The notes: generated from the sequence alone by a model not told the origin. DNA of 64,000 nucleotides from Dendrobates tinctorius (GCF_039654945.1 NW_027361674.1:14012001-14076000), one strand, 5' to 3'; counted from the first letter of the stretch, positions 7,982-55,946 are shown. Translations and numbers: made by a program.

Positions 7982-8769
7982 TGTTGTGAGTTCATTTTCC
8001 CCTTCACTACGGAGGCCCGAGGAACTCCCTCTTCTGGTAAAGAAAGGCAGTGAGCCTGATTATCAAACACCTGAGGCTGATGATGATGACTGGCTGAGTG
8101 GAGTTACTGACTGGATATAAGGCTGCCGACGCCCTTCTGCCCTGCGGGTGATTTCTCTGTGGGATCCTTGGAGACCAGTCTGAATTCCTGCTCCTCTAAA
8201 GCTAAGTTTGCTGCTCGGCTTTTTGCATTTGTGCTTTGACTTTGTTTTGCTTTGTTTTTCTGTATTTCTGCCATTCCCTGCTGGGGTGTGCTGAATTCCT
8301 TTAGCTCTGTCTTCTGAAAATACCTGAGTGCTGATTTAGTTTTTGAAGCCTAGCTGCTTCAGGGCCTTTTTCATATCAGCTTGTTGGCTTATGTCTTTGA
8401 TAGGGTTTTGGCAGATTGCAGACAGCAGCCTTCCTGTCCTTTCCTATCTAGGTAGTTTTGGGCCCCGGCTTTGCTCAGTCTATCTTTCTTTCTGTGTTAG
8501 CGTTTTCATCTTGCTTCACCGTCATTATATGTTGGGGGCTGCCTATTGCTTTGGGGTCTGCTCTGGGGCAGTTTAGATTTCCCCTTTCTTTCTTTAGGCC
8601 TATTTAATTCTCCGGCTGTGGTCTAGGGCATCGTAGGAACCCCCCACGGCTACTGCTAGTTGTGTTGATAGGTTCAGGGGTCTGCAATCTGATAGTTGCC
8701 AACTTCTCTGGTTTTCTGGACTTAGCTTGTATTTCTGTTTTTGCCTCCTACGGTGACTCTATCATAACA
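7982..8769 (+). repeat. Element B 5' LTR
   Basis: 788 bp; TATAA at 8116-8120; direct repeat of 15437-16232. Confidence 0.95.
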
Positions 8770-8780
8770 GAATCACCCGC
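8770..8780 (+). promoter_or_regulatory. Self-priming primer-binding site of element B
   Basis: GAATCACCCGC lacks the TGG tRNA signature and is complementary to GCGGGTGATTT (8144-8154), 28 nt after the TATA start. Confidence 0.8.
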
Positions 8781-8908
8781 CATACCGCAGATCCTAGGGT
8801 ACTCAATAGCAGGAAAGAATTGTAAAAAAAAAAAAAAAAAAAAAAAAGTGTGTATATTTTTTTCCTCTATATCTCTGAGGCCGTAGGGGGAATTTTTTTT
8901 TTCTCTCA

Positions 8909-10915
8909 ATGGAGATAAAGCAATTGTCTGATCGTGTGGAGCAGCTCGCTGCGGAAGTGCGGGGAATTTCCGCCTACCTTGCTCATTCACATGCTGCTGA
9001 ACCAAAGATTCCTACACCTGATGTATTTTTTGGGGATCGGTCTAAATTTTTGAATTTCAAAAATAATTGTAAATTATTTTTTGCCTTGAAGCCTAACTCC
9101 TCAGGGAGCTCCGCGCAGCAGGTTAAAATTGTCATCTCTTTGCTGCGTGGCGATCCCCAGGATTGGGCGTTTTCTTTGAAACCAGATGATCCTATTCTGA
9201 CTAATGTGAACGCATTTTTTCAGGCCTTGGGGTTGTTGTATGACGAACCTAATGCCATTGATCAGGCTGAAAAGACCCTGCTGGCATTGAACCAGGGTCG
9301 TGATTCTGCAGAATTGTACTGTCAAAAATTCCGAAAGTGGGCAGTACTTACTACCTGGAATGATAATGCCTTGGCTGCTCTCTTTCGGAAGGGGTTGTCA
9401 GAAGCCGTAAAAGATACTATGGTGGGATTTCCTGTTCCCTCTGGTCTTGACGATTCTATGTCATTAGCCATTCAGGTTGATCGGCGTTTGCGCGAACGCA
9501 AAGCTGCACGAGAGGTGTTGCCACCTGTTGAACAAATGTCTGAACCTATGCAATGTGATAGAGTTTTTTCCAGAGAGCAGCGTCAGGAGTTCAGAAGGCG
9601 TAATAAGTTGTGTTTTTTCTGTGGAGATGCCTCGCATATTATTTCTGTCTGTCCTAAACTAGAGAAACGCTTTGCACACACGTTTTCTGTTGGAGGTGTT
9701 CAACCTAAGTTTCTTCTGGCTATTACTCTGATCTGCTCCCTGTCCACATTTTCTGCTAAGGCTTTTGTGGATTCGGGAGCAGCCCTAAACCTAATGGACT
9801 TGGATTTTGCTAAACGTTGTGGATTTCCGATGACACCTCTGCAGACGCCTATCCCTTTGAGGGGGATTGATGCTACTCCTTTGGCTAAAAATAAACCTCA
9901 GTTTTGGACCCAGGTGGTAATGCGGGTCGCCCCAGACCATCAAGAAAATTGCAGATTTTTGGTGTTGCATAATCTGCATGATACTATTGTTCTGGGGTTT
10001 CCCTGGTTACAAATTCATAATCCAGTTTTGGATTGGAAATCTGTGTCTGTGGTGAGTTGGGGTTGTCGGTGTGCCTTTAGTGAGGCTCCGGTGTTTTCCA
10101 CCTCTCCTCAGTCGCATGATGTTCCTGATTATTTGGCGGACTTTTATGATGTATTTAGTGAGAATGAGTCTGCGTCTCTGCCTCCTCATAGGAGTTATGA
10201 CTGTGCAATTGAACTGAGCCCGGGGTGTAAATTTCCCAAGGGTCGGCTCTTCAATTTATCTGTACCCGAGCACGAGGCAATGCGATCCTATATTAAGGAG
10301 GCGTTGGAGAAGGGTCATATTAGACCATCCTCGTCACCCTTAGGTGCCGGTTTTTTTTTTGTAGCCAAAAAGGATGGATCATTAAGACTTTGTATTGATT
10401 ATCGTGCCCTCAACAAAATTACTGTTAAATATCAGTATCCGTTACCCCTGATTTCTGATCTATTCTCCAGAGTTAAAGGTGCTTGCTGGTTTACCAAGCT
10501 TGACCTCAGGGGGGCGTATAATCTTATTCGCATTAAGCATGGGGATGAATGGAAGACGGCGTTTAATACTCCGGAGGGACATTTTGAGTACCTGGTGATG
10601 CCTTTTGGGCTCACTAATGCCCCTTCTGTCTTCCAGTGCTTCATGAACGATATTTTCCGAGATTTTGTCGATAAATTTTTGATTATCTATCTGGATGATA
10701 TTTTGATCTTCTCCAAGGATTGGGATTCTCATGTGGAACATATTCGGACTGTGTTCCGGATCTTGAGGGAGAATTCCCTGTATGTCAAAGGATCTAAATG
10801 CCTTTTTGGAGTACAGAGGATTTCTTTATGGGATTTATTTTGTCCCCGTCAACTATTGAAATGGACCCGGCCAAGGTACAGGCCATTTACGACTGGGTTC
10901 AGCCCACTTCTTTGA
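8909..10915 (+). CDS. Element B Gag-protease-RT polyprotein, N-terminal part (frameshift at ~10825)
   Basis: Zinc knuckle [14 protein letters not shown]; protease FVDSGA; [13 protein letters not shown] and YLDD. Confidence 0.92.
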
Positions 10916-11319
10916 AGGCCCTCCAGAAGTTTTTGGGTTTTGCTAATTTTTATCGGAAATTTATAGCAAAATTTTCTAGTATTGCCAAGCCATTGACTGA
11001 TTTGACTAAGAAGGGTGCTGATGTGTTAAATTGGTCTCCGGAGGCTGTTTCTTCCTTTCAGGAGCTGAAGCGAAGATTCACCTCCGCCCCGGTTTTGCGG
11101 CAACCTGATGTCTCACTTCCATTCCAGGTAGAGGTGGATGCTTCTGAGATTGGTGCAGGAGCTGTTTTGTCCCAAAAGGATCCTGTAACATCTAAAATGA
11201 ATCCCTGTGCTTTCTTTTCCCGAAAGTTCTCTCCATCTGAACGTAACTATGATGTGGGGAATAGGGAACTGTTGGCCATGAAATGGGCATTTGAGGAGTG
11301 GAGACATTGGTTGGAGGGA
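10828..11319 (+). CDS. Element B RT C-terminus and RNase H (interrupted by element C)
   Basis: [50 protein letters not shown]. Confidence 0.88.
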
Positions 11320-11479
11320 TGTCACGTCCGCCATGTCTGCCATGTCTGTTTGTCTCAAGAACTCCTGGAGCGATGTGCATGCGCATGTTTTGTCTGCTGT
11401 CCTGCATGTTCGCTAGAGCTGTGTGCAGACTCACCTCATGTCTGAGCTGCAGGATCCCTGCGTTTCTGCTCTGCCTTCT

Positions 11480-11720
11480 GTGATCTTCTCGTCATGTCTG
11501 GAGTCCTTGATCATGTGATGTTTCTTAAGATCCTGCACTGTCTGGTTCTGCAATCATCTCGTCATGTCTAGAATCCCGGATCATGTGTTCTTCCTAGGAT
11601 CCTGCACTGGTTGGTTCGGTGATCATCTCGTCATGTCTGAAACCCTGATCATGTGACGTTTCCTAAGATCCTGCACTGTCTGGTTCTGCTATCATCTCGT
11701 CATGTCTAGAATCCCGGAAG
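11480..11720 (+). repeat. ~60-bp tandem repeat (about 4 copies) in the U3-like part of element C
   Basis: Recurring ATCATCTCGTCATGTCT...GATCATGTG and GATCCTGCACTG...TGGTTC. Confidence 0.8.
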
Positions 11721-12501
11721 TGCTCCCCTGGTCCTGACCTGGAGGAGGAGGTGCTATGCCCTATATCAGGCCGCCTCTTCCTATGCTCAGGGCCTGATTA
11801 TTGTGTTGCTTCCCTGCAAGGCTTTGGGTCTGTGGGGTTGCTCCCTCTATTCTGTGCCCTTGCACTTTGCTCTGTAGTGCGTCTCTGCACACGCTCCGTG
11901 CTCGTATTCCGCCTCTTGTCTTGTGCCATGTCTTGTGTTGTCTCTCGTGCCATGTTTGTCTTTGCCTTGCTTTGCCTTGTAGTCCTTCTGCTGTTCTTTG
12001 TCTTAGTCTGTTTTGCTATGTCTCGCCTTAGCTATGCTTTGACTTGTAGTCCTTCCTTTGTTCTCTGCCTCGCCTGTTTTGCCATGTCTTGCTTTTGCTA
12101 TGCTTTGACTTGTAGTCCTCCCTGTGTTCTCTGCCTTGCTATTCCTTGCTTTGTGTTCCTCCCTATGGTCTCAGTCTTTGCTTGCTCTGCCTCGCTCTCT
12201 CCTATGGTGCTCTGTAGTGCTCCCTGGCACACGCACCATTTCTCCTCTCCTTAGTGCTCGTTTCTTTGTCTAGTCCCAAGGTCTTCCCTTGGCCCGGCTC
12301 TGGGCTTCTGCCTACGCTCCGCTGCTAGACTCTGTCCTCGCTCTGACCTGGCTCTGTTTCTGCTTGTGTTCCTTGCCTTGTTCCCTGCCTTGTCCTTGCA
12401 TTGAACCCCGGCGTGGGTTCCCCTTGGCCGTCTCCTGTGCCGTGGTAAGTGCCACGTGTTTGTGTACAGCCGTGTGTACTGGCCAGTGTGGCGTGCCCCC
12501 T

Positions 12502-13230
12502 GCGTGGCTCCTAGCACGCAGCCCTTCCTTGTGCCCTGGCGTGGCTCCTAGCACGCACCCTGCCTTGAACCCTGGCGTGGCTCCTAGCACGCACCCTGCC
12601 TTGAACCCTGGCGTGGCTCCTAGCACGCACCCTGCCCTGAACCTGGCGTGGCTCCTAGCACGAAGGTTCCTTTGCCCCCTCCTGTGCCTTAGTCGTGCCT
12701 CGTGCTGGCGTTACAGCCGTGTGCATTGGCCAGTGAGGTGTGCGTCCCTGCGTAGCTCCTAGCACGCAGCCCTGCTCTGAACCCTGGCGTGTCTCTACAC
12801 GCACTCTGTCTTGTGCCTTGGCGTGTCTCTACACGCACTCTGTCTTGTACCTTGGCGTGTCTCTACACGCACTCTGTCTTGTACCTTGGCGTGTCTCTAC
12901 ACGCACTCTGTCTTGTACCTTGAACCTTGGCGTGTCTCTACACGCACTCTGTCTTATACCTTGTACCTTGGCGTGTCTCTACACGCACTGTCTTATTCTA
13001 TGCTTTGGCGTGGCTACACACGCACCCTGTCTCGTTTGCGAACCTTGGCGTGTCCCCTACACACGCACCTCGCTTTGAACCCTGGCGTGTCCCCTACACA
13101 CGCACCTTGCCTTGCACCTAGTCTTGAACCCTGGCGTGTCCCCTACACACGCACCTAGCCTTGGACCCTGGCGTGTCCCCTACACACGCACCTAGCCTTG
13201 GACCTTGGCGTGTTCCCTAAACACGCACCC
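12502..13230 (+). repeat. Array of 18 mostly 34-40-bp units, each with a GCGTG-loop-CACGC inverted repeat
   Basis: Units counted by eye; 16 have an intact stem; three loop classes occur in blocks. Confidence 0.9.
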
Positions 13231-13793
13231 TGCTTGGATATCTGTCGTGCCTCCTTGCCTGAACCCTGGTTTGCCTGCCGGATGCCCGGAACCTGCCGAC
13301 CGTTGCCAGAGGTCCGGAACCAGATGACTGCGGCCTGATGTCCGGAGCTGACGTCCGCAGCCTGATCCCTGGACCCTGTCGGTTTGCCAGCAGTCCGGAG
13401 TCCGATGCCATCATGCCATTACCTGTGCCTAGGCGTGCCATCTGGCACGTACCATGTTATGGACCTTGGCGTGCCCACGCGCGCACCTTGCACGTTTTGC
13501 TTGTTTTCCCTGTATGTGATCTTGTGTTATTCTAATGAAGATACCTTGCACCTACGTCTAGTCTCGTCTTGCTTCCTGCTCGTCCTTGTCGTCAGACACT
13601 CGTCTAGTGTCCCCTGAGCCGGCCGTCTGGTCCCAGCAGTCGTGGTGGCTCACCCCCTTGGTCTTGCCCCTGACACTCCCTGTATAGGGGGTGGATTCTC
13701 ACAAGGTCAGCTCGCCCTCGGTGGGTGGGTGCCACGACCCAGAGGGTCCACTCAAAAAATGGGCTCAGCAGGAGCTGAGTCCGTCACAAGGGA

Positions 13794-15575
13794 GCTAAGC
13801 ATCAAGTCGTGGTCCTCACTGACCACAAGAATTTGATTTACCTAGAGTCGGCTAAGCGCTCGAACCCTAGACAGGCTAGGTGGGCCTTGTTTTTTACACG
13901 TTTTGATTTTGTCGTTTCTTTTCTTCCTGGAACGAAGAATGTCAAGGCAGACGCCCTCTCTAGGAGCTTCTTTGCTGATTCTCCTGTGGTGACCAAGCCT
14001 GCTACCATCTTAGGCGAAGGGGTAGTTCTTTCTGCCATCTCGCCCGATTTGAGACGTGCTCTGGAAGAGTTCCAGGAGGACAAACCTGAGCGTTGTCCCA
14101 GTGGAAAGTTGTATGTTCCTGACCAGTGGAAGAAGAGAGTGATGTCTGAAGTTCATTGCTCTGCTTTGGCTGGTCATCCAGGTATTTTTGGTACTAGAGA
14201 TCTGGTGAGTCGGTTTTTTTGGTGGCCCTCCTTGTCTCGTGATGTCAGGAATTTTGTGCAGTCCTGTGGGACGTGCTCCCGGTCTAAATCGTGTTCTCGC
14301 TCTAGTGGGTTGTTGATGCCTTTGCCTGTCCCCAAGAGGCCATGGACCCATATTTCAATGGATTTCATCTCTGATATGCCTGTCTCTCAAAGGATGAGTG
14401 TTATTTGGGTGATTTGTGATAGGTTCTCTAAGATGGTTCATCTTGTACCACTCCCTAAGTTGCCGTCTTCCTCTGAGTTGGTGCCCCTGTTTTTACAACA
14501 GGTGGTTCGTTTGTACGGGATTCCTGAGAACATTGTATCTGACAGAGGAGTCCAGTTTGTGTCTAGATTTTGGAGAACTTTCTGTTCCAGGCTGGGAATT
14601 CAGTTGTCCTTCTCCTCTGCTTTTCACCCTCAGACCAATGGGCAGACAGAGAGAACAAACCAGACCTTGGAGTCATATTTGAGATGTTTTATTTCTGCTG
14701 ATCAGGATGATTGGGTTTCATTTTTGCCCTTGGCCGAATTTGCTTTAAATAATAGAGCTAGTTCTGCCACTTTGATGTCACCTTTTTTTTGTAACTTTGG
14801 GTTTCATCCTCGATTTTCTTCAGGGCAGGTGGAGCCCTCTGCCTGCCCAGGTGTTGACACTGTGGTGGAGAGAATGCACCAGATCTGGGACCAAGTGGTG
14901 GATAAGTTATCTCTCTCCCAGGAAAAGGCCCAGCGGTTTTCCAACCGACATAGGACCATTGGTCCCCAGTTTAAGGTTGGTGATATGGTGTGGTTATCAT
15001 CAAAAAATATTGCTATGAAGGTGGCTTCTCCTAAGTTTAAGCCTAGATTTATTGGACCTTACAAGATTGTGGAGATTATTAATCCGGTCTCTTTTCGTTT
15101 GGCTCTTCCTGTCACATTTAAAATCCATAATGTGTTCCATAAATCTTTGTTGAAGAGGTTTGTTGAACCTGTTGTTCCGGGGGTGGCACCTCCAGACCCT
15201 GTATTGGTTGAAGGTAACATGGAATATGAGGTAGAGAAAGTACTGGATTCCCGTCTGGCTAGACGGAGACTCCAGTATTTGGTTAAGTGGAAGGGTTATG
15301 GTCAGGAGGATAATTCCTGGGTCTCTGCCTCTGATATTCATGCCAAAAGATTGGTGCGTGCCTTTCATTGGGCTCACCCTGATCGCCCTGGTGGCGTGGT
15401 TGAGGGTTCGGTGACGCCTCCTCAAGGGGGAGGTACTGTTGTGAGTTCATTTTCCCCTTCACTACGGAGGCCCGAGGAACTCCCTCTTCTGGTAAAGAAA
15501 GGTAGTGAGCCTGATTATCAAACACCTGAGGCTGATGATGATGACTGGCTGAGTGGAGTTACTGACTGGATATAA
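13794..15575 (+). CDS. Element B RNase H end, integrase and chromodomain
   Basis: VLTDHKNL; HHCC (HCSALAGHPG...CGTC); ISMDF / VSDRG / GQTERTN; chromodomain YEVEKVLDSR...YLVKWKGYG; ORF runs into the 3' LTR. Confidence 0.93.
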   Translation, partial: AKHQVVVLTDHKNLIYLESAKRSNPRQARWALFFTRFDFVVSFLPGTKNVKADALSRSFFADSPVVTKPATILGEGVVLSAISPDLRRALEEFQEDKPERCPSGKLYVPDQWKKRVMSEVHCSALAGHPGIFGTRDLVSRFFWWPSLSRDVRNFVQSCGTCSRSKSCSRSSGLLMPLPVPKRPWTHISMDFISDMPVSQRMSVIWVICDRFSKMVHLVPLPKLPSSSELVPLFLQQVVRLYGIPENIVSDRGVQFVSRFWRTFCSRLGIQLSFSSAFHPQTNGQTERTNQTLESYLRCFISADQDDWVSFLPLAEFALNNRASSATLMSPFFCNFGFHPRFSSGQVEPSACPGVDTVVERMHQIWDQVVDKLSLSQEKAQRFSNRHRTIGPQFKVGDMVWLSSKNIAMKVASPKFKPRFIGPYKIVEIINPVSFRLALPVTFKIHNVFHKSLLKRFVEPVVPGVAPPDPVLVEGNMEYEVEKVLDSRLARRRLQYLVKWKGYGQEDNSWVSASDIHAKRLVRAFHWAHPDRPGGVVEGSVTPPQGGGTVVSSFSPSLRRPEELPLLVKKGSEPDYQTPEADDDDWLSGVTDWI

Positions 15576-16232
15576 GGCTGCTGACGCCCTTCTGCCCTGC
15601 GGGTGATTTCTCTGTGGGATCCTTGGAGACCAGTCTGAATTCCTGCTCCTCTAAAGCTAAGTTTGCTGCTCGGCTTTTTGCATTTGTGCTTTGACTTTGT
15701 TTTGCTTTGTTTTTCTGTATTTCTGCCATTCCCTGCTGGGGTGTGCTGAATTCCTTTAGCTCTGTCTTCTGAAAATACCTGAGTGCTGATTTAGTTTTTG
15801 AAGCCTAGCTGCTTCAGGGCCTTTTTCATATCAGCTTGTTGGCTTATGTCTTTGATAGGGTTTTGGCAGATTGCAGACAGCAGCCTTCCTGTCCTTTCCT
15901 ATCTAGGTAGTTTTGGGCCCCGGCTTTGCTCAGTCTATCTTTCTTTCTGTGTTAGTGTTTTCATCTTGCTTCACCGTCATTATATGTTGGGGGTTGCCTA
16001 TTGCTTTAGGGTCTGCTCTGGGGCAGTTTAGATTTCCCCTTTCTTTCTTTAGGCCTATTTAATTCTCCGGCTGTGATCGAGGGGTCTAGGGCATCGTAGG
16101 AACCCCCCACGGCTACTGCTAGTTGTGTTGATAGGTTCAGGGGTCTGCAATCTGATAGTTGCCAACTTCTCTGGTTTTCTGGACTTAGCTTGTATTTCTG
16201 TTTTTGCCTCCTACGGTGACTCTATCATAACA
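15437..16232 (+). repeat. Element B 3' LTR
   Basis: 796 bp; differs from the 5' LTR by 5 substitutions and one 8-bp indel (by eye). Confidence 0.95.
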
Positions 16233-33432: not shown

Positions 33433-35870
33433 TGAACTTAATCTTCAGTGTCTTCCGCTCCACTGGAGCACTTACCACCCATATGCCTCTCTGCAGCGCC
33501 GGCCAGAGACGTCAGCAGCATGATCACATGACATGATCACACTGCTGGCGTCGCTCTGACCTGGCGGTCATAGCTTCAATTGTACTTGCGTCTGTAACAT
33601 ACGAGTACAATTGATACCTGGGAGTCAGCACGCTGCAACTTCTCTGTGCTGGCTGTCAGTTTGACAGCTGGCACAGAGAACATCCGACTCCCAGTCCGGG
33701 GAGCGGCAGAATGCAGCCGCAGGGGGAGACACTGCGGACCGCCGCATTAGGTGGCCTGACTGCGCCCCATTGCCGGCTGCGCCCGCGGCACATGCCCTGG
33801 CTGCCACCCCCTAGATATGCCGCTGGCTGGGCAGGCCCCTTAGCACTCCAGACCCCGTCACAGCTGCACCCCTGCAACCTCGGTAGTTACGCCCCTGGCT
33901 AAACCCATGGATATCAATGAGTTCAGCTGAAATTATTCTCATGTGTAAGAGGGGGATGGGTTCAGAGGCAGATATTGGCCCAGCATGGCTTAATCTGCTT
34001 GTCCACATCACAAATTGCGAATATGATCCACAGCAGAAATTATTATATTTTTTTTTTGGAGTGTATGCTACTTATTTCCATGGTGCATTTTTTCCACAGC
34101 CCAGGCAAAACTCTACAATGAAATTTTTACTTATGGCGCAGTCAGACGACTGTAGAAATCATACTGAGGTCGGATTGCAGTGTACGGACTGGCCGGCGGC
34201 TCTCCCGACCCAAACGTGACAGCTGCACAGAAATATATGCAACTGTCACACTTAGTTCAGGAGACCCGCCGGCCAGTCTGTGCATTGCATTCTGATCTCT
34301 GTTCGATTTTTATGGCCATCTGACTGCAGCCTTTGAATGTGATTGTGACTGCAGTAACCTATTTAAATGTATGGGGTGCAAGTTGTCAAATTTGAACTGA
34401 GAGATCAGGTTCTAGTCCGATATGGTGGGAACAGTGTCCTAAAGTACATCAGCTGGAGTGCAGGCTATAGATGGTAAAAAAAACAGTCCAAGTTGTAGTT
34501 GGCTTTTCTTTTACTCAGGGCAAAAGCCTAATTTAGATCTTGTCCAACACCCAAGTATCCCCAGCCAGTGGTTTGTTAGCCAAAGCGAACCATAACTTTT
34601 CCCTTAATGACTGGCAGAGGCCTGGAAAACTTCTTTAGAGAGCCTTGAGATTAGCCCTCATTTATTTTATGATATTTATTGACGTTTACAGATAATCTTT
34701 CCCTCTTGCTGGTTTAGATATCCATACTTTTGGATCACCCTTGGTGTAGTGGAAATCAGCATTGGATGCACTGACTGATCATGCAATAGAGCCATTTCAC
34801 ACCACCATACAGCAGACATGTCTTCTCCTCTGTATTACAGCTTCAAGTCTGCACCCAACTACCAATCTCATGGTCTAAGGCTGGGTTTCCATATTCAACG
34901 ACCATCCAGATCACATCAGCTTCCTTGTGCCTCAACTGATGACAAAACAGATGTCAAAATGGCACCAGTTCTCATTAATCATTTTCGCTTGTTTCTACTG
35001 CAAAACTGAGTGAGAAAAATACAACATGTAGTTTCAGCTCCTTGAATGGTCCAGAGCAACAATCGATGCACCAGATGGATGTGAAAAATCCCATAGCAAA
35101 TCTATGGAATCTGTTCTCGCATCAGCTTCACTCCAACATTTCACTGCCATACTGGAGGGAAAAAAATTACATGTGTCTATAGACCATATTATGAGGGTCT
35201 TGTGGCGTGGCTAAGGGTCGTATAGTCGATGGGAGGTATGTGTCTCAGAGATGGCTTGTCTCTGTAATGAAATCCCAGAGTGTTTCTTTAGTACACATAA
35301 GCCCTAATGGATATCATTATATTTCTAATGTTTTGCAAGGACCTGTGGTGAGGTCAGAATCACATGACTAGTCAGCTGCTGGGTTCGTGGGTGTGGCTAT
35401 ACCTTTATGATGAAAAAACAAAAAAACTGAACTGAAGTAGAATTGAATGACATGCATGATGTAAAAGCATGTTCACATTGGCCATAAAAGCAAGCAAAAC
35501 CAAAGGAAAAAAAAAAAAGGAAAATGATGTAGACTACTTCTGACACAGAGAGCTGTATGTGGGGAGGGATAAGCCTCCTGTGTGTGCTGGGGCTCCAGGA
35601 CCGAGCCTGAAGTAATGGTCATTTGTGCTTTCTTTTGCCTGAGCTAAAGGCTATTTCTTTTGTTTTGTGCTGCTTTATGGGTTATGCCACAATAAACCCT
35701 ATGAACTTTAAAAGGAACGTGCCTCCTGATTGTCTCCCGTTGCACCTGAGCGAGTACAATCCCTACAATTGGTGCTAGACATGCAGGCAGCGTTCCCAGC
35801 AGAGCCTTAAGACTGTTACTGCATGTCCTGGGTCAAGTTTGCAGCAAGCCAGCAAGCATTGCCTGGAAAA

Positions 35871-38800
35871 ATGGAGGACCTGCTGAAACACCTGGTCCAG
35901 TCCCAGGCACAGCAACAGGAGACCAACAGGTTGCTGTTACAGCAGATCCAGCAGGAGCAACGGCAATGACAGCAGATCCATCTTCTGGCAACCGCCATCC
36001 AGGAGGGCAGGACGAGCACCCCAACCCCAGGTCTGGCTGATGACACCCACGTCAGGAAGGCGGTAAGACGCGCATTGCAGAAAATGACCCCTGAGGATGA
36101 TGTTGAGGCCTTCCTGACAGTGTTTGAGAGGGTGGCTGAGGGAAAAACTTCAGCGAGAGCAGTGGGCAGAGGTACTGGCCCCATACCTGACGGGGGAGCC
36201 CCAGAAGGCGTACTATGACTTAGCTTTGCAAGACGCCAAGGAGTATCCCAAACAAAAGCCGAGATTCTCGCACGTTTGGGGATGACAATGACTGTCAGGG
36301 CACAGCAAGTTCACCACTGGGCCTATCACCGGGACAAACCACCTTGCTCCCAAATGTTCGACCTGTTGCACCTGGTCCAGAAATGGCTACAGCCAGAGTC
36401 TTCTACTACTGCACAGATGGTAGAGTGGGTGGTGATGGATCGGTTTGTGCATTCCCTGCCGAGACCCCTACAGACTTGGGTTTCCCAGGGTGATCCCCAG
36501 AATGCCAATGAACTGGTTGGACTGGTCGAGAGATACCAGGGGATGGAAGGCTCCTTGGGGAAGCAGCCCATTCCGTATTGGGGGTTCCAGCAGGGGCGGA
36601 GTCCCAAAAAGGGGTGGGGTGTCCAAGGTCAAAAGGGGCGGGGGAGGCGGTGCCCAAGGTCCCCACGGGTGATATTATTTGCTGGAAGTGCCACTGGCCT
36701 GGACATATAGCTGCCCGTTGTCCCCAGACCACCAAGCAGATGGACTGCAGCATGGGACGCCGTAGTTCATACTGTGCATATCCAGCCTGCAGTGTGAACT
36801 CTCCACCTAACGAGGGGCCACCAAGCGTGTCCCGTGAAGGTGAACGTTCGAGCAGTAATGGCGCTGCTAGACTCCGGGAGCTTGGTGACCCTTGAACGGG
36901 CCACTGTTCCTCTCAACCTACTCCTGGGTAAAAAGGTCGGCGTTCGGTGCATACATGGTGATGCAAAAGACTACCCTATGGCCAGGGTGAATATTGAAAC
37001 GGCGCATGGCACCGAGTCCCATGAAGTTGGCGTTGTTCGGGACTTGTTGCATCCTATAATTATAGGCCGGGATTTCTGTCTATTTTGGGAGCTGTTGGGT
37101 AAGGGTTCTGAGATTGCTAGCAAGAGCAGGGAACCAATGAACCCTAATAAGTTATCGCCACCACCAGAGGCAGACGGGTTCCCTTTTTGTGTCCTTGTGG
37201 GGGATGAGGAGGAAGTGTCCCTTGTATCTGACATTCCGGAGTTGGGGTTGGCCGGTGAGAATTTTGGGACTGCCCAACAAAGGGACCCAACGCTGAGGGA
37301 AGACTTCAACAATGTCACCGTCATTAATGGGGTTGCACAAGAGCCAGGAGCAGACACAAGGTTTCCCTATTTTATGATGAGTGGGGAGTTGTTATACCGG
37401 GTCATGAAAATAAGGGAGGAGTTGGTAGAGCAGTTAATAGTACCAGGCCCCTATACTGTAGACGGAAAGTGTTGGACATGGCCCATTCATACATCTTGGG
37501 GGGACACCTGGGGGTGGAAAAAACGCAGGAACGGGTTGTGCAGAGGTTCTATTGGCCTGGGTATCACCAGGAAATAGTAAACTATTGCAGGTCCTGCCCT
37601 GCATGTCCTTTAACTGCCCCATCTCATTTCCGGAACCCCCTTGTGCCATTGCCCATTACTGAGGTGCCATTTGAGAGAATTGCCATGGACTTGGTCGGTC
37701 CCTTAGATAAATCAGCCCGGGGCCATCAGTATATATTAGTCATCCTGGACTATGCCACACACTATCCTGAGGCAATTCCCCTGAGATATTCCTCCACGAA
37801 GAGAATAGCCCGCGAGTTGGTCCATGTGTTTTCCCGGACGGGTTTGCAGAAGGAGATCCTGACCGACCAGGGGACACCTTTTATGAGCAAGGTGATGAGG
37901 GAGTTGTGCAAGGTTCTGCAAATCTCCCAGTTGAGGATTTCAGTGTACCATACGCAGTCAGATGGCCTTGTTGAGAGGTTTAACAAGACACTGAAGAGCA
38001 TGCTAAGAAAAGCCATAGAGAAAGATGGTAGAGACTGGAATTGTCTCTTACCGTATTTGCTGTTTTCTATCCATGAAGTTCCCCAGGACTCCACAGGGTT
38101 CTCGCCCTTCGAGCTTCTGTACGGCTGACATCGGCGAGGTCTCCTAGATATAGCCAAGGAAACCTGGGAAGCCAAAGTCACGCCCCACAGAAGCGTCATT
38201 GAGCATGTGGCACTGATGCAGCAGAAGGTTGCCAAGGTGATGCCCATTGTTAAAGAACATCTCCGCCAGGCACAAGAGGCTCAGGCCAGGGTCTACAACC
38301 GGTCAGCAAGAGTGAGGCAGGTCAATCCGGGAGACAGAGTTCTCATGCTAATTCCGACGGTGAAGAGTAAGTTCTTGGCCAAGTGGCAAGGGCCATATGA
38401 GGTGGTGGAGAAGCTTGGTGAGGTAAATTATAAAATTCACTAACCTGGTAGATGGAAACCATACCAGGTTTACCATGTCAACCTCATCAAACCGTGGCAA
38501 GATAGAGAGCCAGTGGTAACTCTGTGCTTGCTGGGCAACCTAGAAGGTGAGGTTGGAGCGGTTACCATAGTGGAGACGCTATCAAAGGCCCAGAAAAAGC
38601 AGTGCTGGGAGTTACTCCAGAAAACAGGGACCTGTTTTCAGAGTTGCCGGAGTTCACGAAGGTTGTGGAGCACAAAATTCTGACCGAGCCACATGTGCGG
38701 GTGAACATGAAGCCTTATCGAATTCCCGAGGCCCGTCGAGAAGTAATCTCCAAGGAGGTGCAGCGTATGTTGAAGCTCGGGGTCATTGAGGAATCCAAGA

Positions 38801-38884
38801 GCGGCTGGTCGAGCCCGATTGTCTTGGTCCCAAAACCTGATGGTGAATGGAGGTTCTGCAATGACTACCGGAAGCTGAATGAGA
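35871..38884 (+). pseudogene. Element D gag (SCAN-like, zinc knuckle), protease, integrase and RT N-terminus
   Basis: KWLQPESSTTAQMVEWVVMDRFVHSLP (SCAN-like); CWKCHWPGHIAARC; ALLDSGS; GGHLG...CPAC, IAMDLVGP, LTDQG, GLVERFN; WRFCNDYRKLN; stops and frameshifts. Confidence 0.9.
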
Positions 38885-41800
38885 TGTCATGATCACGTGT
38901 GTCTGGACGCAGATGTTTCCGCATGGCGAACCCATGTGACACACGTGACCCTGGATACACCGCCTCCAGTGGGGCGAATTTAAATAATAAAACGTGCAGG
39001 TGGATACGCCGCCTCCACCTGGCGAATTTAGGTATTACTCGTTATACATACAATAATCAAATAATAAAGGGGGAACCTGGGAAACTTTAACAATGGTGGG
39101 CCCTGCAATAGGGAAAAGGGAATTGGAGACCTCCTGAGCTCCCCTGAGCCAGTGTCCCTGCACTCCTAACGTTCCCTATGCCGGTTTCGCACCGGGCGCC
39201 GCACGCGTACCTCAACGCCCTTGCTCACCCTGACCCTAAACCCTCACTAGGGAATGGGTCGGTGCGGAGACTAATCCCACCACTGCACTAATAACACACA
39301 TGAGGAAAGAGACAATACAGGGGAAACACCACTTAGCTTTGCTCTGTTGCATGCGCTCCTAGCAACAGAGCCCTCCACCTGAGTGCATCTTCTCCTCCAC
39401 CTGGATCCATCACCATAACAGGATCCTTCACCTTAGTGCAGCCTTGGAGCAGAATCCAACACCAGTTGCAGCTGCTTAGAACCAGAGTCCCAAGGATGAG
39501 TTCAGCTGCTGACACGAAGTCGAGCATGCTTGAATCCAGCTCAGCGGCCAAGTCCCACATGGTGAGTGCCACTCTCCATAGTCGCCACTCCACCAGCCCA
39601 TGCAGACACTTCCCGCTGACACCATCACTGCGACTCCACCACGCCATGCCAGCCCTTCGTCCAGACACCATAGCTGCAACACGTCCCCCCTGGCTAAGCT
39701 GCGCAGGACTCCTCACCAGCTCCATCCTTCATCCAGGCTCTCCCAAAACAGAGTGAACACAACTCACAATATCACAGGCAGTGATTGCACACCTCTAGCA
39801 CACCTTTATAGGGTGTCACCCCTAATACCTAATTAAGTGCACAAAAACCCAAAGTGCAATACCAAAACCACCACCGGGGACAGTCAAGACACCTTGGAAC
39901 TTTCCAAAGTAAAAAAAAGTTCACCCAGTGATTTAAAACTGTCAGATCACTTCAGATCATGACACTACCCCCTCCTTAATGAGGGGCCTCTGGACCCTCA
40001 AGACCACCCCTCATTAGGGAAACACCTACAGCGGGGATGCCCAGACCCTGAGTTCACCCCACCATTACCTGACACTTCAGGTTTATGACAAACGCACCGC
40101 TGGTATTGGCAATACATGTTCATTTTGGAGGCACCACTCATCTCCACAGCGCCGACCTGGGGAACGAGATTATGTATGTGTATGTATGCTAAGAGCTGAT
40201 CAGACTCCACAACACATTTCCAAGATGTTTTTTGGTGGGACCCATACATGCTCGTTCACACACAGGTCCGGACCTGAACGTTTATTCCACACATACATTT
40301 GTCATTTTTTTGGTGAACTCACTCTGGACTTGACAACAAAGGCGTCCCCCTGTGTCACCACACTCACACCCCCACTATTCACCAAGGGATCACCACCCTC
40401 CAACCCTCTTCACCATGAGGTCTGCGCCCCCCAGGGTTGGTTTAATGGCGAGGGTTGAGATTTGTCCCTACTCCCCCGCAGCACACCAGCTGCTCACACC
40501 AGGAGGAGAAGGAACGCATATGGAGGAAATATACACTCACTGGCCGCCTCCACACGGCCAGGAGGGGCGGCCTCCACGGTGGTATTTGAAGATTCGGCGC
40601 AAACCCCGTGGACTCTACATCAGTCTGCTCATCACTGGAACGCACCCCTTCACCTCGGGGAACACCAAGCAGCTCCGTGGGGCACCATTCCTCCCACCTG
40701 CCTGGGTACGCCCACGTGCACGAGCAAGTCCCGCTCCCCAGCAGCGACTCCAGGGGCTTTTGCCAGACCCGCAATTTGCCAAAGCCGCCATTTTTTTTTT
40801 CTCTGGTTATCCGAGCAGAGGCCCCAGACCGCGACAACCGCCGCTGCAGCGGCTCCAAACACCTTGCCGCTCCCCACTCACCCCAGTGAGGCCCGGCAGC
40901 AACAACTCAGCGGTCTCCACACGGCCAAAGCGCACCAGAAAAAAAAACTGTATGGCCTGTGATAATGTCATGGTCACGTGTGTCAGGACGCAGATGATGC
41001 CGCAAGGCGAACCCATAACACACGTGACCCTGGATACACCGCCTCCAGTGGGGCGCATTTAAATAATAAAAACGTGCAGGTGGATACGCCGCCTCCACCT
41101 GGCGAATTTAGGTATTACACGTTATACATACAATATCTGGAAACACCGCCTCCAGTAAGGCGCATTTAAATAATAAAGGGGGGAACCTGGGTAACTTTAA
41201 CAATGGTGGGCCCTGCAATAGGGAAAAGGGAATTGGAGACCTCCTGAGCTCCCCTGAGCCAGTGTCCCTGCACTCCTAACGTTCCCTATGCCGGTTTCGC
41301 ACCGGGCGCCGCACACGTACCTCAACGCCCTTGCTCACCCTGACCCTAAACCCTCACTAGGGAATGGGTCGGTGCGAAGACTAATCCCACCACTGCACTA
41401 ATAACACACATGAGGAAAGAGACAATACAGGGGAAACACCACTTAGCTTTGCTCTGTTGCGTGCGCTCCTAGCAACAGAGCCCTCCACCTGAGTGCATCT
41501 TCTCCTCCACCTGGATCCATCACCATAACAGGATCCTTCACCTTAGTGCAGCCTTGGAGCAGAGTCCAACACCAGTTGCAGCTGCTTAGAACCAGAGTCC
41601 CAAGGATGAGTTCAGCTGCTGACACGAAGTCGAGCATGCTTGAGTCCAGCTCAGCGGCCAAGTCCCACATGGTGAGTGCCACTCTCCATAGTCGCCACTC
41701 CACCAGCCCATGCAGACACTTCCCGCTGACACCATCACTGCGACTCCACCACGCCATGCCAGCCCTTCATCCAGACACCATAGCTGCAACACGTCCCCCC

Positions 41801-42067
41801 TGGCTAAGCTGCGCAGGACTCATCACCAGCTCCATCCAGGCTCTCCCAAAACAGAGTGAACACAACTCACAATATCACAGGCAGTGATTGCACACCTCTA
41901 GCACACCTTTATAGGGTGTCACCCCTAATACCTAATTAAGTGCACAAAAACCCAAAGTGCAATACCAAAACCACCACCGGGGACAGTCAAGACACCTTGG
42001 AACTTTCCAAAGTAAAAAAAAGTTCACCCAGTGATTTAAAACTGTCAGATCACTTCAGATCATGACA
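38885..42067 (-). mobile_element. Element E: non-autonomous LTR retroelement (1.1-kb LTRs, 1.0-kb non-coding interior) inserted in the RT of element D
   Basis: LTRs 38885-39964 and 40966-42067 (TGTCATG...CATGACA); minus-strand PPT AAGGAGGGGGTAG at 39965-39977; imperfect TSD GAGA/GAGG; splits KLNE|VSKFDAYPMP. Confidence 0.92.
40955..40964 (-). promoter_or_regulatory. Self-priming PBS of element E
   Basis: TATCACAGGC is complementary to the predicted transcript start GCCTGTGATA (41882-41873), 31 nt after TATAAA (41913-41908). Confidence 0.78.
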
Positions 42068-43140
42068 GAGGTCTCCAAGTTTGACGCATATCCCATGCCA
42101 CGCGTAGATGAGCTCATCGAGAGACTTGGACCTGCCAGGTACATAACCACCAAGGAGAAGACTGCATTTTCTACACCAGATGGGTGCTTCCAGTATGTCC
42201 GGATGCCGTTTGGCCTGCAGGGAGCTCCGGCGACCTTCCAGAGGGCTATGGATAGAATCCTTATGCCTCAAAAGCTATACGCTGCCACGTACCTGGATGA
42301 TATCGTCATCTTTACCCCGGACTGGGAGACTCACCTGGAAAAGGTCCAAGCAGTGTTTGATACTCTAAGGGAGGCGGGGTTTACGATAAACCCAAAAAAG
42401 TGTGCCTTGGGTAAAGGAGAAGCCAAGTACCTGAGATATGTAGTGGGGCGTGGCGAGATCAAACCCCAAATCAATAAAGTGGAGGCAATTCAAACATAGC
42501 CGATACCTCTGTCCAAAACGCAGGTTTGAGTCTTCATGGATTGTGGGATATTACAGTAGGTTCATCCCAAACTTCACCATGATGGCTGCGCCTCTAACTG
42601 ATCTGCTTAAGGGGACAAAATCTGTAATGGTCAAATGGTGCAAAGAGGCAGAGTCAGCCTTCCAAGAAATGAAAGGGGCTCTAGGTAAGCAACCCGTTCT
42701 GGTGGCCCCAGACTTTAAAAAAGAGTGTATCCTTCAGACAGATGCCTCAGATGTCGGGGTAGGTGCAGTCCTCACCCAGGAGATACATAGGGAGGAGCAT
42801 CCTGTCCTCTACCTGAGTAGGAAGCTATCTTCATGCGAAAAGAATTACTCAGTCGTAGAGAAGAAGTGTTTGGTCATAAAGTGGGCAGTGGATACGTTAC
42901 GGTACTATCTGGTGGGATGTAAGTTTAGATTAATATCCGACCATGCCTCACTCAGATGGATGAGGGAAACAAAGGGTAAGAATGCTAGGGTCACCCGCTG
43001 GTTCTTAGCCCTGCAAGACTTCAGCTTCCATGTAGAACATAGGGCCGGGAAGCTACATGGTAATGCCGATGTCCTCTCAAGAATCCCTTGTCTAGTAGGG
43101 GAAAGTGCCAAGCCCCATGGCTTTAGGCAGAGGGGGAGGT
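42068..43140 (+). pseudogene. Element D RT and RNase H
   Basis: FDAYPMPRVDELIE; MPFGLQGAPATFQR; YLDD; LQTDASDVGVGAVL; NYSVVEKKCL; HGNADVLSR. Confidence 0.9.
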
Positions 43141-43791
43141 ATGTGGCGTGGCTAAGGGTCGTATAGTCGATGGGAGGTATGTGTCTCAGAGATGGCTTGT
43201 CTCTGTAATGTAAGCCCAGAGTGTTTCTTTAGTACACATAAGCCCTAATGGATATTATTATATTTCTAATGTTTTGCAAGGACCTGTGGTGAGGTCACAA
43301 TCACATGACTAGTCAGCTGCTGGGTTCGTGGGTGTAGCTATACCTGTATGATGTAGACTACTCCTGAAACAGAGAGCTGTATGTGGGGAGGGATAAGCCT
43401 CCTGTGTGTGCTGGGGCTCCAGGACCGAGCCTGAAGTAATGGACATTTGTGCTTTCTTTTGCCTGAGCTAAAGGCTATTTCTTTTGTTTTGTGCTGCTTT
43501 ATGGGTTATGCCGCAATAAACCCTATGAACTTTAAAAGGAACGTACCTCCTGAGTGTCTCCCGTTGCACCTGAGTACAATCCCTACAGTCTATAGGCCAT
43601 ATGTGAGGAACGAATTAGTAATATATCACTGAGCCACAACCATGTTAAAATGTAACTTTTAATAAACACTCAATAAAACGTAAACATACAGAAAACAATC
43701 AAGGTTGCATAAAAGCAAGTGGTATAGTAAATACAACCACTAAGATACTGGAAAAATTATAAAATTAGTAGGATACTAATACTGTCTCTAA

Positions 43792-49638: not shown

Positions 49639-52600
49639 TAATAATATCATAATAATAAATTTTATTTCTATAGCGCTGACATATTCCGCAGCACTTTACA
49701 TTTCAGAGGGGACTTGTACAGACAATATACATTACAGCATAACAATAATCACATAGATCATAACAGATACCAAGAGGAATGAGGGCCCTGCTCGCAAGCT
49801 TACAATCTATGAGGAAAAAAGGGGAGACACAAAAGGTGGGTGGTAACAGTTGACCTGATTGTGTGGACCAGCCATAATGGTAAGTGTGTAACAGTACGGA
49901 TGCAGAGGGCTAATGGATGCATAAAGCATGTGGGAACATGATGCGGGGAACCTGGTTATGGTAAAAAACGTTAGGCTGTGCCACATAGGGATAGATTAGG
50001 TTAATGTGTTGAGGCGGTAGGCCAGTCTGAATAAATGCGTTTTCAGGGCACGCTTAAAATTGTGGGGATTGGGGACTAATCATATTGACCTGGGAAGTGC
50101 ATTCCAAAGAATTGGCGCAGCACGTGTATAGTCTTGAAGAGAGGAGTGGGAGGTTCTGATTATTGAGGATGCTAACCTCAGGTCATCAGCAGAACGGAGG
50201 GCGCGAGTAGGATGGTATACTGAAACAAGGGAGGAGATGTAGGGTGGAGCTGAGCAATGAAGAGCTTTGTGGGTGAGGGTAATAAGTTTGTACTGGATTC
50301 TGGAGTGGATGGGTAGCCAGTGTAATGACTGGCACAAGGTAGAGGCATCGGTGTAACGATTGGCGAGGAATATGATCCTGGCAGCTGCATTCAAGACAGA
50401 TTGGAGGGGGGAGAGTTTGGTAAGAGGAAGACCGATTAGAAGGGAGTTACAATAGTCGAGACGAGAATGAATAAGAGAAACAGTCAGAGTTTTTGCAGAA
50501 TCAAAAGTAAGAAAAGGTCGAATTCTAGAAATGTTTTTGAGGTGCAGATAACAAGAGCGAGCCAGTGATCGGATGTGGGGGACAAAGGAAAGCTCAGAGT
50601 CAAGTATGACCCCAAGACAGCGGGCATGTTGCTGGGGAGTAATAGTAGAACCACACACGGAAATGGCAATGTCGGGTATAGGTACATTAGTAGCGGGAGG
50701 AAACACAAGGAGTTCAGTCTTTGACAGGTTCAGTTTCAGATATAGTGAGGACATGATGTTAGACACAGCGTTTAGACAATTGCCAGTGTTTTCTAGAAAG
50801 GCTGGCATGATGTCTGGAGAAGAAGCATATAATTGGGTGTCGTCCGCATAGAGATGCTACTGGAAACCAAATCTACTGATTGTTTGACCAATAGGGGCAG
50901 TATACAAAGAGAAGAGGAGGGGTCCTAGGACTGATCCTTGAGGAACCCCAACAGTAAGGGGAAGATGAGAGGAGGAGGAGCCAGCAAAATATACAGTAAA
51001 GGAGCGGTCAGAGAGATAGGAGGAGAACCAGGAGAGAACGGTGTCCTTGAGGCCAATGGAACGGAGCATAGCGAGGAGGAGCTGATGATCCACAGTGTCG
51101 AATGCTGCAGAGTGATCCAAGAGAATTAGCATGGAGTAATGACCATTTGATTTAACTGTTAGTAGATCATTAGAGACTTTAGTGAGGGCAGTGTCAGTAG
51201 AATGTAAAGAGCGGAAACCGGATTGGAGAGGGTCGAGAAGAGAGTTTTCTGAGAGATAGCGGATAAGACGGGAGTGGACCAGGCGTTCCAGGAGTTTAGA
51301 GATGAAGGGAAGATTAGAAACAGGTCTATAGTTAGCGGCACAGTTTTGAGGGATGTTTTTTTAAGTAGTGGATGTATGATGGCATGCTTAAATGAGGAGG
51401 GAAAGATACCAGAAGAGAGAGAGAGGTTAAATATTTTAGTTAGGTGAGGGGTGACAGCAGGGCAAAGGGTCTGGAGTAGATGTGACGGAAATAGGTCACT
51501 GGTGCAAGTGGTTGGGCGGGAAGATGCAAGGAGCCTGCTTACTTCTTCTTCTGTGACTGGTTCAAAGTCAGAGAGTGAGCTAGATGCAGTGGGGGAGGGA
51601 GGACAGTGCATGGTATGAGGTGACTGGGAGATAATTTCCTGTCGGATCTGGTCAATTTTTTCTTTGAAGTAATTGGCCAGATCGTCAGCTCGAAGCTCCG
51701 TGGTAGAGGCCTGTACTCTTGGGCTGAGTAGAGAATGAAAAGTGTCAAAGAGACGTTTAGGGTTATTGGACAGTGAAGTGATGAGGGTGTTGAAATAGGT
51801 TTGTTTTGAGAGGTGAAGGGCAGTGTTGTATGTTTGAAGCATAAACTTATAATGGATGAAATCTTCGGGTAGGCTGGATTTTCTCCACAGACATTCGGCG
51901 CACCTGGAGCACCGCTGCAGGAAACGTGTTTGCAGGGTGTGCCAGGGTTGTCACCGTCTGTGTTGTGGTGTTCTATGAATAGGAGGAGCAAATTCATCCA
52001 GGGCACTTTGAAGTGTTACATTGTAATGCTTCAATGCAGAATCAGGACATGAAAAGGAGGAGATAGGGGCCAATGAAGACTGCAAGTTCTTCATACATAA
52101 GTTTCTGGGTGTTAATGGCCTGTATGTTTCTATAAATATGGACAGTGGGGGTGACCTGAGAAGCCTGGCAGTTCTTGATAGAGAATGAAAGAAGGTTGTG
52201 GTCAGAGAGCGGGAGAGGGGAGTTTGCAAAATCATCCACTGCACAAAGCCGAGAGAAGACCAAGTCGAGGGAGTTCCCGTCTTCATGCATTGGAGAATTA
52301 GTAAGCTGCAAAAGGCCAAACGAGGAGGTTAGAGATAAAAGGTGAGTAGCAGATGGGGAGAGGGGAAGAGCAATGGGGATGTTGAAATCGCCCATGATGA
52401 GGGTAGGGATGTCACAGGAGAGAAAATGTGGAAGCCAAGTGGCAAAATGATCCAGGAACTGATGGGAGGGGCCGGGAGGACGATATACCACCGCCACTCG
52501 CATGGAGAAGGGGGTGTAAAGTCTGATGGCATGGACCTCAAAAGAAGGAAAGACAAGTGAGGGTACTTGAGGGATAACCTGAAAGGTACATTTTGATGAT

Positions 52601-53270
52601 AGGAGCAGACCAACGCCTCCACCTGCTCTATTGTCTGATCTTAGGGTATGAGAGAATTGTAGTCCCCCGTATGAAAGAGCAGCAGCAGCGGTAGTGTCTG
52701 ACTGCTGGATCCAGGTTTCAGTAAGAGCCAGGAGGTTAAGAGAATTAGAAAGGAAAAAGTCATGAGTGAAGGTGAGTTTATTACACACTGAGCGAGAATT
52801 CCAAAGGGCACAATTAAGAGAGACAGATGGCAGGCAGGGAATATTAATAAGATTAGAGGGGTTTCTAAGTTTAGCAGTTGGGGGGTTTGACTTTCTATAA
52901 CATGGGGGACCAGGGTTTGGAGCAATGTCTCCTGCGACTAGGAGAAGGAGGATAGAAAGAGTGAGCAGATGGTTAAGTGATTTGTGAGAGCGTCTCTTAT
53001 GTTGAATGGTGGGACTGAATGGATCTGTGCAATTTAGCAATGTGAAAAGAGCGTGAGTGCTATACATAGGAGAGGAAAGGAGTGAGGGGCCAATATGGAC
53101 GGAGTGTAGACGGAGTGTAGAGAGTTAATACCAGGGCGGTGGATGTGTGTAAATGCAGCGGCCAGGATATAAATTATACAAATATTTGGGGTTGCCCAAG
53201 TGTACAGGGAAGAGATTTATTTATTTGTTTTACCTGTCTCCTGCCCTGTCTAACTGCCATGTTATAACTG
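49639..53270 (-). mobile_element. L2/CR1-group LINE with a decayed but near-complete ORF2
   Basis: 3' end TGTAAAGTGCTGCGGAATATG...GCGCTATAGAAATAAA plus (ATT)n tail; APE and RT fragments. Confidence 0.92.
50080..53067 (-). pseudogene. LINE ORF2 (2A-like peptide, AP endonuclease, reverse transcriptase)
   Basis: WNSRSV; ALTETWI; VYRPP; MGDFN; LSDHN; AAFDTVDH; [13 protein letters not shown]; YADD; SRLDYCNSLL; several frameshifts. Confidence 0.92.
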
Positions 53271-55080: not shown

Positions 55081-55302
55081 GGCTGGAGTCACACACAACG
55101 AATAATAAATCAGTCCCATTTTAACGGTCCGAAATCGCACAAAGGTATCTTAACCAGTGATGCGTTTTTGAAGCGATTTTTCTTCATTGATGCGATTTTA
55201 ATCGCATGTAAGGATCCGTTTGACATCCGTGAAAATGGACATATAATGGAGCCCAATGACAGGTTTCCCCACACAAACTAATTAATAGTTCTAGACACTA
55301 TA

Positions 55303-55335
<33 letters not shown>

Positions 55336-55905
55336 TTTATACATGTCATAGAGACACATTTATACATATATTTGACATTCATACAGTTCATCATAGCAGA
55401 ATAGCCGCAGAAACATTTGCCGGCTTTTGTATAATTATGCTCCTGCCCGACATGAAATGTCACATGGTTTACATATAGTTAACCATTTCATTTCATGATT
55501 TTTTTGTAATGTCTATCACTATTAATTAGATGAGTGTTTGTGGGTAAAATTATGGAGTTGTAGGGGTTAATTTAAGGGGTTAATTCGTTGTATTAAATTG
55601 CAGGGACTCCTGCTGACGTCACTGAGGCTGCAGGGAGTCCCCGTAATTTAATACAACGAACTAACCCCTTAAATTAACCCCTACAACTCCATAATTTTAC
55701 CCACAAACACTCATCTAATTAATAGTGATAGACATTACAAAAAAATCATGAAATGAAATGGTTAACTATATGTAAACCATGTGACATTTCATGTCGGGCA
55801 GGAGCATAATTATACAAAAGCCGGCAAATGTTTCTGCGGCTATTCTGCTATGATGAACTGTATGAATGTCAAATATATGTATAAATGTGTCTCTATGACA
55901 TGTAT

Positions 55906-55946
<41 letters not shown>

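Follow-up and report, generated by a model that had tools for sequence, protein, structure and literature searches.

A gene-less LTR retroelement in a frog genome

The window analysed here, a stretch of 64,000 nucleotides (64 kb) of Dendrobates tinctorius DNA, contains a real LTR retroelement of 3183 bp (38885-42067, minus strand), which we interpret, with a probability of about 0.72, as a copy of a non-autonomous, non-coding family of the Tf1/sushi lineage (the vertebrate chromoviruses) that was probably born long ago by loss of gag-pol and then spread. An earlier interpretation made from the DNA letters alone (the sequence-only reading) had proposed two LTRs of about 1.1 kb around an interior of 1001 bp, together with a polypurine tract (PPT), a TATAAA box and a primer binding site (PBS); we located all of these parts (Table 1): the LTRs measure 1102 and 1080 bp, the interior 1001 bp, the PPT is AAGGAGGGGGTAG, and the TATAAA is the only TATA-like box in the sense strand of the LTR. 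Aligned to each other, the two LTRs match at 1054 positions, mismatch at 16 and have gaps in 42 columns; together they account for 69% of the length of the element. That reading had also called it a long-LTR retroelement; long LTRs are common in the 64-kb window and are no special trait here. Both LTR ends of the element satisfy the Sushi motifs TGTYANR / CNTNACA as tabulated in PMC3601003 (Table 3). Neither AATAAA nor ATTAAA occurs in the sense strand of the 5' LTR (40966-42067) or of the LTR of the neighbouring chromovirus described below, element B (7982-8769); AATAAA is present in the antisense strand of the studied element, within its U5 repeats, and the Sushi LTR model given in PMC3601003 has a clear AATAAA.

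Table 1. Features of the retroelement, of the chromovirus used as a control (element B) and of the host element, in window coordinates
Feature	Position	Strand	Details
5' LTR	40966..42067	-	1102 bp; TGTCATG...CATGACA at ends
3' LTR	38885..39964	-	1080 bp; same TGTCATG...CATGACA ends
Interior	39965..40965	-	1001 bp; non-coding, many-copy
Predicted U3 of 5' LTR	41883..42067	-	185 bp; derived from predicted TSS
TATAAA	41908..41913	-	sole TATA-like box, sense LTR
Predicted self-primer GCCTGTGATA	41873..41882	-	predicted transcript nt 1-10
U5 stem-loop	40972..41029 (arms 40972-40983 / 41018-41029)	-	12 perfect pairs; 6 nt from LTR end
PBS TATCACAGGC	40955..40964	-	1 nt past 5' LTR
Polypurine tract AAGGAGGGGGTAG	39965..39977	-	directly abutting 3' LTR
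Candidate 4-bp TSD, left flank GAGA	38881..38884	+	
Candidate 4-bp TSD, right flank GAGG	42068..42071	+	1 mismatch
Probable relic, chromovirus Pol C-terminal tail	39979..40008	-	reads GGLEGPEAPH
Possible relic, start of integrase SH3-like (GPY/F) region	40224..40286	-	
Element B, chromovirus	7982..16232	+	Gag, protease, RT, RNase H, integrase, SH3, chromodomain
Element B PBS AATCACCCGC	8771-8780	+	LTR, then one G, AATCACCCGC, CATAC
Element B PBS complement	8144-8153	+	29 nt past ATATAA
Gmr1-type Ty3/gypsy host element	35201..43587	+	RT interrupted by the element; 4-bp TSD GTCT

The flanks of this one insertion, GAGA and GAGG, can be read as a target site duplication (TSD) of 4 bp with one mismatch or of 5 bp with two changes. 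A 5-bp TSD is the general rule for the Tf1/sushi group, and perfect 5-bp TSDs flank both element B (TAGGC) and the probable solo LTR nested in it (AGGGA). The differences between the two LTRs are concentrated within 200 bp at the U5 end, which holds 9 of the 16 substitutions (p 0.0008) and all indel events except one; outside this region the divergence is 0.8% of sites. A sister copy that converted this end of the LTR, or recombined with it, is a likely cause of the clustering. The differences at the U5 end (38885-39085 and 40966-41200) include a 30-bp indel, and a short motif there forms three repeats in the 5' LTR and two in the 3' LTR.

The element is inserted in the RT of a Ty3/gypsy element that encodes SCAN, protease, integrase, RT and RNase H domains, in that order, and that we take to be of the Gmr1 type from this order. 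Integrase precedes RT and RNase H in Gmr1-type elements, as described in PMC3601003.

A predicted self-priming signal

Read on the minus strand, a single T, the PBS TATCACAGGC and CATAC come directly after the 5' LTR. The PBS lacks the TGG start expected of the complement of a tRNA 3' end, and its exact complement, GCCTGTGATA, has a single occurrence in the LTR (41882-41873), 31 nt past the start of the sole TATAAA. This unique 10-nt complement agrees with the sequence-only reading, which had described a PBS unrelated to tRNA that pairs 10/10 with the predicted start of the transcript. When the bases of the LTR were shuffled, a PBS complement of at least 10 nt appeared at any place in 16 of 3000 shuffles, and the location of the complement beside the TATA box would lower the chance rate further. 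When the predicted leader of 977 nt is folded, each of the ten primer:PBS pairs has a probability of 0.95-1.0. Complementarity of the PBS to the 5' end of the element's own RNA, by which the Tf1/sushi group is recognised, is thus present at the sequence level, the transcription start site (TSS) being predicted from TATAAA.

The 12-bp stem previously suggested for U5 is present as well, with a z-score of -2.9 in the 5' LTR (equally stable shuffles 3/200) and -3.0 in the 3' LTR (2/200), where the stem is retained with altered end pairs. A 'pretzel' structure made up of three duplexes has been described for Tf1 (10.1101/2022.12.06.519325). Its central duplex and the U5 stem are supported in our element; the third duplex can form, with 106 of 300 shuffles doing equally well (90 of 300 for element B). 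A hairpin before the PPT was no better than shuffles (51/200).

Element B as a control within the window

The same window contains a chromovirus with recognisable coding domains, element B, the integrase end of which has its best relatives in Ranitomeya imitator at about 70-79% identity. The PBS of the studied element differs from that of element B at three sites, and each of these changes is mirrored in the element's own predicted primer. A pattern built from both LTR-PBS junctions found two sites in the 64-kb window, namely the two from which it had been built, and none in 100 shuffles. The TGG-type PBS of the Gmr1-type host has no complement within the host LTR. Element B as a real control therefore strengthens the prediction of self-priming. 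In the full leader fold of element B the primer:PBS pairing probability is about 0.13, and shuffle-tested folds recovered no strong U5 stem in it. Three metagenome and six viral-contig matches to the junction pattern agreed with the element in short words only, encoded no chromovirus Pol and were set aside as chance.

A loose likeness between the sequence before the PPT and the end of element B had also been claimed. This was real when the PPT was included in the comparison (reached by 0 of 2000 shuffles before the 3' LTR) and weak when it was left out (99 of 2000); a local alignment of the sequences following the two PBSs was, on its own, matched by 134 of 2000 shuffles. Element B was also considered as a direct parent and rejected, as none of its sequence was recovered when the LTR and the interior were compared with the window by blastn. 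Judged from these comparisons, element B is a relative with a common signal layout and no alignable LTR or interior in common with the studied element, not its parent. About 65 bp separate the end of its chromodomain from the LTR, and its pol frame continues through the PPT into the 3' LTR, with a stop at 15575.

The RNase H region of element B carries a 2469-bp insertion (11320-13788, plus strand) with TGT...ACA ends and the perfect AGGGA duplication mentioned above. It contains tandem repeats, has a strong hairpin at its terminus (0/200 shuffles) and probably represents a solo LTR of very great length. Within it, a sequence similar to the primer predicted for the studied element, GGGCCTGATTATTG, comes after a TATA-like site at 11761. 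Around element B lies a decayed element (about 5423-20101, minus strand) with repeats at 5423-5820 and 19358-20101 that are 79-92% alike, a protease-like frame at 18025-18558, an RT-like frame at 16387-16803 and a tRNA-type TGG after the repeat end near 19358, so that decayed element, element B and solo LTR are nested three deep. Elsewhere, the window holds many long near-perfect inverted repeats (for example 23844-24397, 55290-55956 and 59879-61338; reaching 98% across 316 nt), which are probably DNA transposons of the foldback or MITE type, as well as a decayed LINE with endonuclease and RT matches (50083-53124, minus strand) and a Tc1/mariner-type DDE_3 fragment (1323-1784, minus strand).

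Coding capacity and possible remnants of pol

The element had been described as having no recognisable gag or pol, and our searches point the same way. No Pfam family was found in its ORFs (six ORFs in one scan and four in another), and blastx against 199 chromovirus-related proteins, of which 29 resemble element B in the Gag-protease region, gave no match at E<=1 (element B as a control: 648 bits). Gag similarity was likewise not found in this copy, either in this search or in a comparison with element B. None of 438 candidates proved homologous to a 242-aa antisense frame at E<=0.01, and the Atlas matches of a 154-aa sense frame were all below 0.9. The interior ORFs, lacking homologues and Pfam matches, were thus ruled out as genes. 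The other mark of the Tf1/sushi group, an RT-integrase phylogeny together with a chromodomain integrase, has no counterpart here, as the element contains possible relics in place of coding domains; it would work like this group and probably derives from it, and is not an autonomous member.

Two short stretches may be such relics. The peptide GGLEGPEAPH, encoded just before the PPT, matches the tail of a chromovirus protein (P0135) at five residues in exact register; a run of five residues was obtained in 4 of 20000 shuffles and six identities in 111 of 20000 (32 distinct tails), in a test that was picked after the match had been noticed. The second stretch, at 40224-40286, resembles the start of the SH3-like region of integrase and has the right strand and order for it, but its support is mixed. 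Its score was reached by 6 of 500 shuffles with a 72-sequence profile, and by 18 of 300 and, with long gaps, 40 of 300; for the best single protein, 3 of 18 shuffles reached the score. Plain hmmsearch detected no pol relic (best E 0.22). If 40224-40286 is a relic, it is old and internally deleted. The profile gave the interior 19.5 bits, compared with means of 54.5 and 21.2 bits for element B DNA randomised to 30% and 40% divergence. Since it detects element B at 30% divergence and gives the interior only 19.5 bits, an intact SH3 region or chromodomain would not be expected in PPT-proximal interior copies that are at least 85% identical. Given these faint traces of the pol end in the 3' part of the interior, the element probably derives from an old deletion and has since given rise to a family.

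Copies of the element in two organisms

Part of the stretch was present in 20 of 24 sequencing runs, 16 from organism A and four, with small shares, from organism B. Contigs from four of the 24 runs were placed on 39965-42200 at 85% likeness; run X1 is DNA by guess, and X15 and X17 are RNA by guess only. All 30 bins were covered in X1 (9694 contigs) and in X17, from organism B (1005 contigs), and interior bins were covered 13/13 in X1, X6 and X17 and 10/13 in X15. The summed depth of X1 contigs, which is not equal to copy number, ranged from 4,093 to 148,566 over the 13 interior bins (median 51,076), compared with 44,776 for U3, 10,703 for the host flank and 108,600-407,600 for the LTR bins at 41015-41839. 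Single X1 pieces among those listed have depths from 3.7, and the interior is therefore clearly not single-copy. This answers the check for a single-copy interior proposed by the sequence-only reading, with contigs in the numbers given above and from a second organism. The same reading had argued for a dedicated family in place of a one-off deletion; the many-copy, non-coding family stands, and the opposition does not, as an old deletion derivative can also be a family.

The interior and R-U5 are common to the two organisms and much of U3 has changed, the X17 bins at 41840-41989 (two of the three U3 bins) being near-empty with depths of 23 and 59. Interior contigs show recurrent one-base indels at 40238-40239, 40390 and 40408, as is to be expected of non-coding DNA, and none of the 40 variants listed falls in the PBS or the primer. 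In sister contigs from X6 and X15, which have loose ends at 39966, the PPT-LTR junction resembles that of element B. No piece among those listed spans the interior (the longest has 218 nt), and it is from pieces that overlap that we infer equally long sister copies. Some interior bins at the centre and near the PBS have X1 depths below that of U3 (4,093, 8,929 and 23,120), and contigs depart from the element sequence near 40755-40761 (X15 record 14 and joints in X17). Together these suggest that longer or differently filled relatives may exist. Contig depth over the LTR core at 41015-41539 (central part and U5) is far above that of U3, and X15 contigs part from this core at 41206 (255 unlike letters) and at 41460 (166 unlike letters); related LTR families may have the core in common and differ in their ends.

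Proposed origin and replication, and alternative explanations

According to our preferred interpretation, a chromovirus would have lost gag-pol long ago, the eroded end of pol would have stayed before the PPT, and the derivative would have spread as a family. RNA polymerase II would start about 31 nt past TATAAA, at or near 41882, and nucleotides 1-10 of the transcript are predicted to pair with the PBS, leaving the long R-U5 as a loop and the U5 hairpin next to the PBS. A helper chromovirus may then package the RNA, supplying the particle, RT/RNase H and integrase; by analogy with Tf1, the helper RT/RNase H would free the primer by cleavage and copy from it, the PPT would prime the plus strand and the helper integrase would insert the DNA. 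Such a cycle would need neither a tRNA nor any gene encoded by the element.

We consider it unlikely that this copy instead arose recently by simple deletion from an autonomous element bearing the same LTRs, the interior depth being contributed by that element's untranslated regions, 5' and 3'. The dips in depth at the centre and near 40790-40864, the contig divergence near 40755-40761 and the lack of a listed piece spanning the interior would fit such an origin. The complete coverage of the interior in three of four runs speaks against it, as do pieces that cross the lowest bin, namely X17 record 21 (40545-40667) and seven X1 contigs at 40595, the ends of which lie up to 40 letters away; the interior also has no clear coding remnant, and the short distance from chromodomain to LTR in element B leaves no room for a 450-bp 3' UTR in an element of that type. 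Part of the same evidence bears on the idea that the family is non-autonomous but has a longer main form, for example a Gag-only one like Xenopus 1A11 or Xretpos, of which this copy would represent a shorter subfamily. The PBS-proximal interior depth is 2-5 times below that of U3, relatives differ near 40755, and pol-less frog LTR elements with one ORF have been described (PMC4585706), but this copy shows no Gag similarity and its low bins are nonetheless covered and bridged, and we regard this too as improbable.

The insertion step leaves room for another helper, in that chromovirus-like self-priming could be combined with insertion by an integrase making 4-bp TSDs, such as that of Gmr1-type elements, an arrangement compatible with the other explanations that seems to us quite improbable. 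It is suggested by the flanks, which need one change for a 4-bp and two for a 5-bp duplication, and by the duplications of 5 bp for element B and the nested solo LTR and of 4 bp for the Gmr1-type host. However, there is a single insertion to judge from, its imperfect TSD adjoins the most altered LTR end, the 3' end conforms to the Sushi motif but departs from that of rGmr1 at one base, and nesting in a Gmr1-type element is uninformative on the helper. A bolder proposal, which we consider a long shot, extends this to a high-copy vertebrate family of gene-less self-priming satellites in at least two species that would take RT from a chromovirus and insertion from an integrase that makes 4-bp duplications and belongs to a different clade, for example Gmr1, and would thus be a two-helper parasite. 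Least of all do we expect the PBS complementarity to be incidental or to serve another purpose, with a tRNA fragment or another small RNA acting as primer. The full pretzel gains no support from shuffles and the TSS is a prediction, which would suit such a primer; the position of the complement at TATA+31, its low chance rate, the mirrored changes relative to element B and a PBS that does not start with TGG all argue for self-priming.

Comparison with known systems

In Tf1, nucleotides 1-11 of the RNA pair with the PBS and are cut off as the primer (PMC7175516), and self-priming is described as a feature of the Tf1/sushi group in fungi, vertebrates and mosses (10.1101/2022.12.06.519325; PMC6317226). 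Self-priming in this group and the existence of gene-less LTR elements, which the sequence-only reading had taken as known, are thus both borne out by the literature. Like the studied element, Tf1/sushi chromoviruses (Tf1, Tf2, Tj1, Tosmo1-3 and sushi-ichi) have a PBS just past the 5' LTR that pairs with the 5' end of the RNA and not with a tRNA, and they have the same LTR end motifs. Unlike them, the element has no Gag, Pol or chromodomain, its pairing comprises 10 nt, the third duplex of the pretzel is unsupported, about 917 nt separate primer and PBS, and its flanks read as a 4-bp TSD with one mismatch.

Gene-less LTR elements cover a continuous range of sizes in which TRIMs are below 1 kb, LARDs above 4 kb and elements of 1.5-4 kb unnamed; many non-autonomous LTR families retain domain remnants, and they have been described mostly in plants (PMC13570524). 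The studied element resembles them in having two LTRs, a PBS and a PPT, no coding capacity and many copies, and differs in its length of 3.2 kb, between both size classes, and in the large share taken up by its LTRs. It belongs to the non-autonomous LTR class, with a size that is neither that of a TRIM nor that of a LARD in the strict sense.

Among animal examples, bivalve TRIMs are further gene-less LTR elements (PMC6934838), and the Helenus elements of fish are gene-less, probably moved by Gypsy elements and, in animals, flanked by 4-bp TSDs (PMC10886601). Helenus thus resembles our element as a gene-less vertebrate LTR element; it differs in having a tRNA-like sequence in the LTR and vertebrate families primed by tRNA 3' ends, the PBS of our element being self-complementary. 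ARAGORN found no tRNA genes in the 64-kb window, and Rfam gave one weak unrelated match at E<=1 (19.6 bits against a cut-off of 50), so with these two programs no LTR sequence derived from tRNA, 5S RNA or ribozymes, the trait of Helenus, Cassandra, Ajax and retrozymes, was found. Mouse VL30 is of retroviral origin, tRNA-primed and carried by retroviral helpers and, unlike our element, is not chromoviral. Like it, VL30 is a non-coding vertebrate LTR element with intact replication signals (PMC4859993). In frogs, Xenopus 1A11, Xretpos and lambda-olt 2-1 lack pol, 1A11 encoding a 71-kDa Gag-like protein and Xretpos having an ORF (PMC4585706); compared by description only, all three are like our element frog LTR elements without pol, and our element differs from 1A11 and Xretpos in having no ORF with homologues. 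A full-text literature search, with Repbase, Dfam and Butler et al. 2001 outside its scope, found no gene-less self-priming LTR family in a vertebrate in the texts it reached, and the parts of PMC2836005 and PMC5753468 consulted contained nothing on Gmr1 TSDs or gene-less self-priming elements. The element combines two known traits, self-priming (here predicted) and gene loss, in a vertebrate, and is not a new kind of system.

Implications

The self-priming mechanism was worked out in yeast with Tf1 and has been extended to vertebrates mainly from sequence inspection. If our interpretation is true, a gene-less passenger of chromoviruses is abundant in the frog genome and forms a sizeable repeat family that protein-based annotation misses. 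Its many copies would then amount to a natural mutagenesis of the vertebrate self-priming signal, in which mirrored changes in the PBS and the 5' end of the transcript could test the mechanism, and the family would reveal the cis signals required by a chromovirus helper.
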